DNA of 64,000 bases, taken from assembly GCA_051891335.1 (NCBI GenBank), contig JBJFFD010000044.1:321-64320 (forward strand). Direction: 5' to 3'. Source of the DNA: Candidatus Scatovivens sp. GTDB taxonomy: Bacteria; Bacillota; Clostridia; TANB77; CAG-508. Positions 3,879-3,970 of the stretch are shown here, piece after piece. The first letter of the stretch is position 1. Each line of letters begins with the position of its first letter. The translations under genes were made by a program, and so were the position numbers. Below the pieces are notes generated by a model. The model made no database searches. It was not told the DNA's origin and worked only from the letters and a program-made list of their open reading frames with translations.

Positions 3879-3970
3879 AGGAAATGACAAATCCACAAAC
3901 GTGGTTTTGCCGAAATTAGTTGTAAAAACTCACACCTAACTCGCCAAAGTTACAGATGTGAGCTTTTTTT
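3879..3970 (+). ncRNA. Putative antitoxin sRNA, module A (type I TA-like)
   Basis: TTGACT (3843-3848), 18 nt, TATAAT (3867-3872). The transcript starts near ATAGGAAATGA, contains no ORF, and ends in the hairpin CTCACA...TGTGAG plus a T7 run (3964-3970). Its 3' part is antisense to the 3' end of the toxin mRNA. Confidence 0.4.

Follow-up and report, generated by a model that had tools for sequence, protein, structure and literature searches.

A predicted tandem type I toxin-antitoxin module and its probable specificity cassette in Candidatus Scatovivens

To our knowledge, whether paralogous type I toxin-antitoxin modules avoid cross-talk or make use of it has been resolved for individual systems only, namely Sib/Ibs, SprG/SprF and the modules of Clostridioides difficile. 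In par of Enterococcus faecalis pAD1, contact between the two RNAs is started by the complementary loops of a shared terminator (PMC7472228), and in bsrG/SR4 of Bacillus subtilis contact begins at the terminator loop of SR4 and the mRNA is degraded by RNase III (PMC3834814). Each small RNA (sRNA) of the Ibs/Sib family in E. coli represses its cognate mRNA only, and swaps of TRD1/TRD2 between SibC and SibD switch this specificity (PMC2943612), while the antitoxins of C. difficile are highly cognate-specific and tolerate about three mismatches (PMC7699646, PMC6563280). The SR-OPR devices derived from SR4/bsrG consist of a portable hairpin tag in the 3' untranslated region (UTR) together with an sRNA, and are made orthogonal by changing this block alone (PMC12721322). 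Here, we describe positions 3731-4748 of a 64,000-nucleotide window (the whole stretch of DNA analysed, from contig JBJFFD010000044.1 of Candidatus Scatovivens sp., assembly GCA_051891335.1), which we consider, on balance, to be a type I toxin-antitoxin module duplicated in tandem, the one block that differs between the copies being its specificity cassette. Discrimination of paralogues by short domains is already known; what we have not found described is a single contiguous overlap block with sharp boundaries, present as few alleles, unlinked to its surroundings and shared by two toxin families.

A tandem duplication and the block that differs

A direct repeat in tandem, spaced by 507-511 nucleotides (nt), is present in the window, and each of its two units carries a predicted sRNA gene on the plus strand facing a putative toxin gene on the minus strand. 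The features predicted in the two units are the following.

3731-4241: unit A
3843-3872, plus strand: promoter of sRNA A, TTGACT-18-TATAAT, with 11 of 12 consensus matches
3877-3911, plus strand: conserved 5' domain of sRNA A, AUAGGAAAUGACAAAUCCACAAACGUGGUUUUGCC, with a small hairpin CCAC/GUGG; the same in unit B save for a 1-nt insertion
3912-3963, both strands: cassette A, made up of a spacer (3912-3928) and a bidirectional terminator hairpin (3929-3962)
3964-3970, plus strand: T7 tract ending sRNA A, overlapping the toxin A stop codon (3969-3971) and the A-run
3969-4088, minus strand: toxin A open reading frame (ORF), 39 amino acids, MFMVKVILFLILSLMFSLTLNVALTAVLYKNWVDKQLHK
4089-4158, minus strand: 5' UTR of toxin A, about 70 nt in length; the leader is kept in all loci
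4166-4194, minus strand: toxin A promoter, TAGACA-17-TAGAAT, weaker than the sRNA promoter
4242-4748: unit B
4354-4383, plus strand: promoter of sRNA B, TTGACT-18-TATAAT
4388-4423, plus strand: conserved 5' domain of sRNA B
4424-4471, both strands: cassette B, made up of a spacer (4424-4436) and a hairpin (4437-4473, AAUAAACCAUU...AAUGGUUUAUU), with a T-run to about 4478
4477-4596, minus strand: toxin B ORF, 39 amino acids, one residue different from A (L10F)
4673-4701, minus strand: toxin B promoter, TAGACA-17-TAGAAT

The units are near-identical outside one short block and without similarity inside it, as the earlier note on this DNA had observed. Upstream of the block, 178 of 182 alignment columns are identical (97.8%, 3731-3911 vs 4242-4423), and downstream of it 267 of 278 (96.0%, 3964-4241 vs 4472-4748). 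Within the block (3912-3963 vs 4424-4471) a lenient global aligner finds identity in 30 of 55 columns (54.5%), the level obtained with shuffled B blocks (50.1 +/- 3.7%), 12% of which score as high as the real block or higher. The difference in identity between block and flanks is highly significant (Fisher p = 2e-17). The flanks of A and B show 15 further differences that are scattered along the units; on the toxin side, 6 of the 11 differences fall together in a single short hairpin within the 5' UTR of the toxin (4105-4122 vs 4612-4628, ACGAAAUAUCGU vs ACGAAUCUUCGU), the loop of which is variable across the family.

Two strain alleles of a single-copy locus, joined in tandem by the assembler, could in principle give rise to such a pattern. 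The region does seem to be hard to assemble, in that 8 of 10 metagenome contigs with the toxin variant P0014 (L003-L010 among them) end exactly at the toxin stop codon, and neither the A-B tandem arrangement nor the exact proteins of the window were found when other assemblies were searched. Contig ends at the stop codon, which is the left boundary of the cassette, are what assemblies would show if they break at the onset of alternative downstream sequences. The units of the window are, however, separated by a distinct junction (4236-4250), their outer flanks are unlike each other and their remaining differences are scattered, and an independent genome harbours A and B copies that are dispersed rather than in tandem (L065, see below). 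An assembly artefact is therefore considered very improbable.

Both toxins are hydrophobic peptides with a charged tail and a Trp, and are preceded by the Shine-Dalgarno (SD) sequence GGAGAGGUGG. In the minimum-free-energy fold of the predicted toxin mRNA, an upstream GCCACCU anti-SD pairs with AGGUGGU of the ribosome-binding site. As in type I systems, a small hydrophobic ORF for the putative toxin, kept in more than 120 loci and served by a separate promoter and ribosome-binding site, is accompanied by a partly complementary predicted RNA gene that also has its own promoter, and the 3' overlap of the predicted RNAs is perfectly complementary. Across the family the sRNA promoter displays TATAAT in 108 of 113 modules and TTGAC[TA] in 104 of 113, at a spacing of 17-18 nt, and the toxin promoter, the weaker of the two, varies more; these conserved promoters are comparative evidence suggesting that both strands are transcribed. 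The sRNA is predicted to be about 90 nt long, ending at the T7 run, and the toxin mRNA about 235 nt, with an overlap of about 45-50 nt that comprises the hairpin and its A/U tracts, so that the swapped block corresponds to the overlap and a short spacer. On the plus strand cassette A would accordingly supply the 3' portion of sRNA A, and on the minus strand the 3' UTR and terminator of the toxin A mRNA. The earlier note had equated the block with the sRNA body, the toxin 3' UTR and the shared terminator. The block does coincide with the predicted overlap (promoter 3843-3872, end of the T-run at about 3970, stop codon 3969-3971), but the first 33 nt or so of the sRNA (3877-3911) lie outside it. 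Small ORFs in the sRNA and in the toxin leader were considered and rejected, as indels between the copies break their frames.

Among the closest known systems is par/Fst (RNA I/RNA II), with which the module shares convergent promoters, a bidirectional intrinsic terminator common to both genes (the U-tract on the toxin strand of B being weak), an intramolecularly masked toxin SD and a small hydrophobic toxin that contains a Trp and has a charged tail at its C-terminus (PMC7472228). It differs from par/Fst in that no 5' complementarity of the DRa/DRb type extends over the toxin initiation region and in the length of the sRNA, about 90 nt here versus about 40 nt in RNA II; the window toxin also lacks the PXXXG(C) motif of Fst/Ldr and contains no proline. 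With bsrG/SR4, txpA/RatA and bsrE/SR5 of B. subtilis it has in common that complementarity is confined to the 3' ends and that the antitoxin promoter is the stronger one (PMC3834814, PMC6563280). A toxin SD within a double-stranded region is a further likeness to that group, in which the duplex is the target of RNase III (PMC3834814, PMC6563280). However, the overlap of about 45-50 nt is here essentially the terminator hairpin, compared with 75-123 nt over several stem-loops in the B. subtilis systems, and no homology between the toxins is detectable. Several paralogous modules per genome are a feature shared with Ibs/Sib, but the Sib RNAs cover the whole ibs ORF and hold their specificity in scattered substitutions of two domains, whereas here one contiguous block with sharp boundaries is replaced wholesale and is found as discrete alleles across many species and in two toxin families. 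The prophage- and CRISPR-adjacent modules of C. difficile (CD0977.1/RCd11, for example) are likewise clostridial, convergent and 3'-overlapping, with charged-tail toxins; they nevertheless show no sequence similarity to the window modules, and paralogues there diverge along their whole length. The SR-OPR devices are engineered, while the same design appears to be natural here.

Hairpins and predicted pairing

Cassette A folds at -9.1 kcal/mol on the plus strand (z = -2.0) and at -19.5 kcal/mol on the minus strand (z = -4.2), and cassette B at -10.8 (z = -3.3) and -14.6 kcal/mol (z = -3.7), respectively. On the plus, or sRNA, strand a clean T7 run is located 3' of both hairpins, and on the minus, or toxin, strand hairpin A is followed by T5. 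The claim that both variants fold into a hairpin followed by a T run on both strands was thus borne out for the hairpins and for the T runs of A, but on the toxin strand of B the hairpin is followed only by an interrupted U-rich tract (UUAUUAAAUCUUU). Among 80 distinct type-A cassettes, 98% of cells in the hairpin are paired and six pairs display compensatory double changes, a result matched by none of 500 shuffles and lost when the pairing partners were slid. The consensus fold of type A (alifold) is stronger on the toxin strand (-16.3 kcal/mol) than on the sRNA strand (-4.7 kcal/mol), because several positions are G.U on the former that would be A.C on the latter. This modelled asymmetry in hairpin strength is compatible with an sRNA that is labile and a toxin mRNA that is stable.

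When sRNA and toxin mRNA were cofolded (ViennaRNA energies, which are thermodynamic), the cognate combinations gained -55.8 and -47.1 kcal/mol and the crossed A/B combinations -3.7 and -1.5 kcal/mol. The earlier proposal that each antitoxin pairs with its own toxin mRNA only is in agreement with this essentially absent cross-pairing. In a wider in-silico matrix the cassettes of A, B and a third module of the window, C, were mutually orthogonal (0 to -4), and variants within a class paired partially (-8 to -38). Complementarity outside the overlap was looked for and none was found, the 5' domain and the spacer being at control level; the cassette spacer, set against the toxin 5' UTR with its variable loop, scored -4.68 kcal/mol for the cognate UTR and -4.69 for non-cognate UTRs (p = 0.5). 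A second contact site similar to DRa/DRb of par was rejected on these results, and an apparent AAGAUU/AAUCUU match in unit B is not general. As in systems of the TxpA/BsrG type, the predicted complementarity is restricted to the 3' ends of the convergent transcripts. The swapped block is likely, according to these models, to be the specificity determinant that leaves A and B without cross-reaction, and it would work as a specificity cassette because recognition would involve the block and nothing else.

The sRNA 5' domain, with a mean pairwise distance of 0.045 in about 110 loci, is the most conserved segment of the module. It is a homologue of the start of the toxin leader (3877-3911/4388-4423 and 4125-4158/4632-4665, respectively; AUAGGAAAUGA...GUGGUUUUGCC), and as these repeats are inverted in the DNA the two RNAs carry them in the same sense and not as complements. 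Both properties would suit a different account of the locus, in which the hairpins are mere terminators, the antitoxin acts via its 5' domain or is no antitoxin at all, A and B are interchangeable and the block is irrelevant to specificity; the likeness to the toxin leader hints at a shared ligand or processing factor. Yet the predicted pairing of the 5' domain with the toxin mRNA is no stronger than that of 60% of shuffles, whereas the overlap is perfectly complementary by construction and corresponds to the functional region in characterised 3'-overlapping systems, and this account is regarded as quite unlikely. Possible roles of the 5' domain include RNA stability, binding of a shared protein ligand and service as a homology arm for recombination. 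Shared 5' motifs (ATAGGAAATGA, GTGGTTTTGCC), present as inverted repeats around cassette and toxin ORF, could have marked an invertible segment; this candidate was rejected, as no inverted form was seen in about 170 loci.

A number of observations weigh against the block being a specificity cassette in this duplicated module. The pairing energies include no kinetics, and the ends of the transcripts are predictions. The U-rich tract on the toxin strand of B is weak, and a simple terminator scan called neither hairpin A nor hairpin B, because its loop and G+C criteria were unmet. A and B have the same highly conserved sRNA 5' domain, and any action of this domain on the toxin mRNA, or on a factor common to both, would lead to cross-talk between A and B. 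Nor, as stated above, does the A-B tandem recur in the other assemblies searched.

If the block is a specificity cassette, the module may operate as follows. A weak promoter on the minus strand would give rise to an mRNA for a 39-amino-acid membrane peptide, with its ribosome-binding site masked by the upstream anti-SD, and a near-consensus promoter on the plus strand to the sRNA, about 90 nt in length. On the model of par/Fst, bsrG/SR4 and txpA/RatA, a kissing contact would form between the complementary loops of the terminators and the duplex would spread through the hairpin, and the paired toxin mRNA would either be cut by RNase III or be stripped of its protective 3' hairpin and decay. With different cassettes in A and B, each sRNA should therefore control only its own toxin mRNA. 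Cassettes of the A, B and module C types, as discrete and old alleles, would move between modules by recombination via the final codons of the toxin ORF and the 5' domain of the sRNA, and we infer that one copy of a recent duplicate received, or else retained, the B cassette.

Cassette classes across the family

The earlier note had called for a survey of other genomes for modular replacement of the same segment, and exactly this segment was found to be exchanged, as a cassette with few discrete forms among about 170 related loci. Modules were recognised by a pattern in which the final toxin codons and the beginning of the sRNA 5' domain are separated by a free gap of 40-70 nt, which occurred in at least 119 stretches, and cassettes were surveyed in 130 modules among the matches listed, from about 120 genome bins on which genome membership relies. 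The A hairpin (CTCACATCTGT...AGRTGTGAG) was present in 110 of these modules and the B hairpin (AAACCATTCTGC...AATGGTTT) in 19, while the remaining one was a decayed remnant beside a tRNA gene; the B hairpin was also found in 42 metagenome loci. Judged by this distribution, A and B are old and widespread allelic classes and not the product of a one-off swap in this genome.

Cassette type is inherited independently of the flanks. Among the modules listed, the flanks of unit B are nearest to those of unit A (3.3% divergence) and then to those of an A-type module (4.2%), the nearest B-type module being at 7.8%. Mapped on a neighbour-joining flank tree, cassette type requires 14 changes for 18 B modules, compared with a mean of 17.2 and a minimum of 14 for random labels. 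The distance matrix of the cassette correlates with none of the flank matrices (Spearman 0.01-0.07), whereas those of the toxin UTR and of the 5' and 3' halves of the ORF intercorrelate (0.46-0.72). The 3' end of the ORF that borders the cassette is highly conserved (mean distance 0.092), and, going by their conservation, this end and the sRNA 5' domain would be the homology arms for recombination. An independent replicate of the exchange is provided by a rabbit-gut genome, L065, in which an A and a B module, 1.77 kb apart, are separated by unique sequence; about 470 nt of their flanks are 99.4% identical and the block boundaries are those of the window. When metagenome contigs were scanned for the B hairpin, the B cassette was also found behind a second toxin family (MVETALITVNYLLFFGLVIVTIINVALIFALAILLSKQQ and relatives). 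There, the 38-nt hairpin is 92% identical to that of the window, and the flanks are 50-65% alike, which is near aligner noise.

Irregular loci were observed as well. In L153, L158 and L163, a B cassette and an sRNA gene face a conserved element of about 70 nt without a toxin ORF, and L152 and L170 have a toxin and the B hairpin with no downstream sRNA gene. In the remnant L167, a deletion between two GATAAGCA repeats has removed the toxin ORF, and in L031 a truncated module abuts a tRNA gene.

The window itself contains a third module, the promoter and leader motifs of which are the same as in A and B, while its toxin and hairpin are different.

5579-5911: module C, a diverged paralogue in inverted orientation with a third cassette type
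5675-5788, plus strand: module C toxin ORF, 37 amino acids, MIESILLETICLLSFGLIAVTFVAIALIITLVIFLSK
5796-5830: bidirectional hairpin of module C
5911-5883, minus strand: promoter of the module C sRNA, TTGACA-17-TATAAT, perfect

A protein search with the module C toxin returned only one relative. The toxin of A and B has relatives in 26 protein clusters, all of them unnamed, without a Pfam domain and from metagenomes or draft genomes, and at E <= 1-10 neither Pfam nor NCBIfam gave a family for the toxins, including the Fst family and TxpA/BsrG/BsrE/YonT. Searches of Rfam gave sub-threshold matches only: RF02589 (Spy779816) reached 25.8 bits against a threshold of 67, and RF01823 (rspL, 'rpsL sRNA') reached 36.9 bits, against a gathering threshold of 37, in the coding region of toxin B (4470-4581, minus strand) and 21.1 bits in that of toxin A (3965-4073, minus strand), a match that relies on a UAAUGUU...AACAUUA hairpin inside the toxin ORF. 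The listed modules belong to uncultured gut Clostridia bins from humans, rabbits, ruminants, chickens and mice, and the family appears to be an undescribed combination of toxin and sRNA in low-GC gut Clostridia.

The suggestion in the earlier note that the duplicated modules had been selected to be orthogonal did not find support. In 17 co-resident pairs from 12 genomes, the mean edit distance between cassettes was 12.0, versus 10.6 for random pairs (p = 0.21), and at least two genomes, JAZRRK (L048/L056) and L132, harbour copies with identical cassettes. Co-residence of A and B in 5 of the 12 multi-copy genomes is about what is expected from a B frequency of about 0.16. These figures, together with the family-wide independence of cassettes from flanks, by which recombination must be frequent regardless of copy number, are in keeping with neutral mosaicism or concerted evolution, where cassettes co-reside by chance and gene conversion homogenises the flanks and stalls at the block of about 50 nt. 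It is a possible explanation, though in our judgement a somewhat doubtful one. We give the same limited credence to a variant in which a conversion tract imported the B cassette by chance, so that the cassettes set specificity and the difference between the copies is unselected. Less easily accommodated by neutrality are the two independent genomes in which flanks that are 97-99% identical enclose different cassettes, the three modules of the window that represent three classes, and the existence of few discrete classes with no continuum, which suggests constraint or selection on the cassettes. All pairs with flanks that are 93-99% identical carry different cassettes, but this sample is biased: pairs with different cassettes are the likeliest to be seen because short-read assemblies collapse identical recent duplicates.

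Selection could also act between elements. Plasmid incompatibility groups are set by the loops of antisense RNAs, and in an analogous manner modules could stabilise mobile elements or islands, a resident sRNA of the same class neutralising the incoming toxin (anti-addiction) and rare classes thereby being favoured. The classes are discrete, old and spread across toxin families, as this would require, and the neighbours of the window modules (DUF3846, RadC-like JAB, sigma-70 region 4-like and XRE helix-turn-helix proteins) are typical of integrative elements; the set of DUF3846, RadC-like, sigma-70-like and NUDIX genes is typical of the accessory regions of Firmicutes integrative elements. Type I modules do stabilise prophages and plasmids in C. 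difficile (PMC7699646). On the other hand, the units gave no match in phage, plasmid or viral collections, many homologues adjoin ordinary housekeeping genes, and type A, at about 85%, is far from the balance that frequency dependence would produce. Selection of this kind is considered unlikely.

Returning to the specificity cassette, we would tentatively extend it one step further. The block may be a natural plug-and-play cassette that is shuffled among modules and toxin families, with a few 'immunity groups' of type I systems in gut Clostridia that reach across toxins, each class of sRNA controlling all toxin mRNAs that carry its hairpin, and with turnover through competition between elements or duplicates. 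Such an extension is speculative, and we think it could well be wrong.

Genomic neighbourhood and significance

The window as a whole has about 25% G+C and no tRNA genes. A gene of the XRE helix-turn-helix family (4786-5511, minus strand) lies between modules B and C, and upstream of the modules (984-3713, minus strand) genes for a DUF3846 protein, a RadC-like JAB protein, a small sigma-70 region 4-like protein and a NUDIX hydrolase (3288-3713) are found. Three copies of a promoter- or operator-like sequence are present on the minus strand (3236-3282, 3755-3801 and 4266-4312), with TTGAAA-17-TATAAT and the inverted repeat TAGATAAT...ATTATCTA. The TTGAAA-17-TATAAT copy at 3751-3779 precedes the NUDIX gene, and the duplicated copy at 4262-4290 points at the toxin A promoter region and could cause read-through transcription of toxin A.

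Further away, a long A+T-rich palindrome is found at two places some 27 kb from each other (about 24590-24630 and 51460-51500; TATATTATAGGAAGTTCCTATAATATA and the related TATATTATAGTAAATTCGGAGTTTCCTATAATATA), and these palindromes may be sites of recombination or terminators. A small ORF (8668-8859, minus strand) with a Cys-rich C-terminus (...CGCSGDCSCSGPCSGGCGDG...) is the neighbour of a radical SAM/SPASM-like gene (7555-8595, minus strand), and this pair (7555-8859) looks like a maturase with the precursor of a ribosomally synthesised and post-translationally modified peptide.

If confirmed, the locus would add an undescribed family of toxin and sRNA that is widespread in uncultured gut Clostridia, and would be a natural case of the modular design that was recently engineered from SR4/bsrG. 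Clostridia would then offer ready-made orthogonal pairs of 3'-UTR tag and sRNA, and the family would constitute a tractable system in which the exchange of cassettes under selection may be set against neutral recombination.

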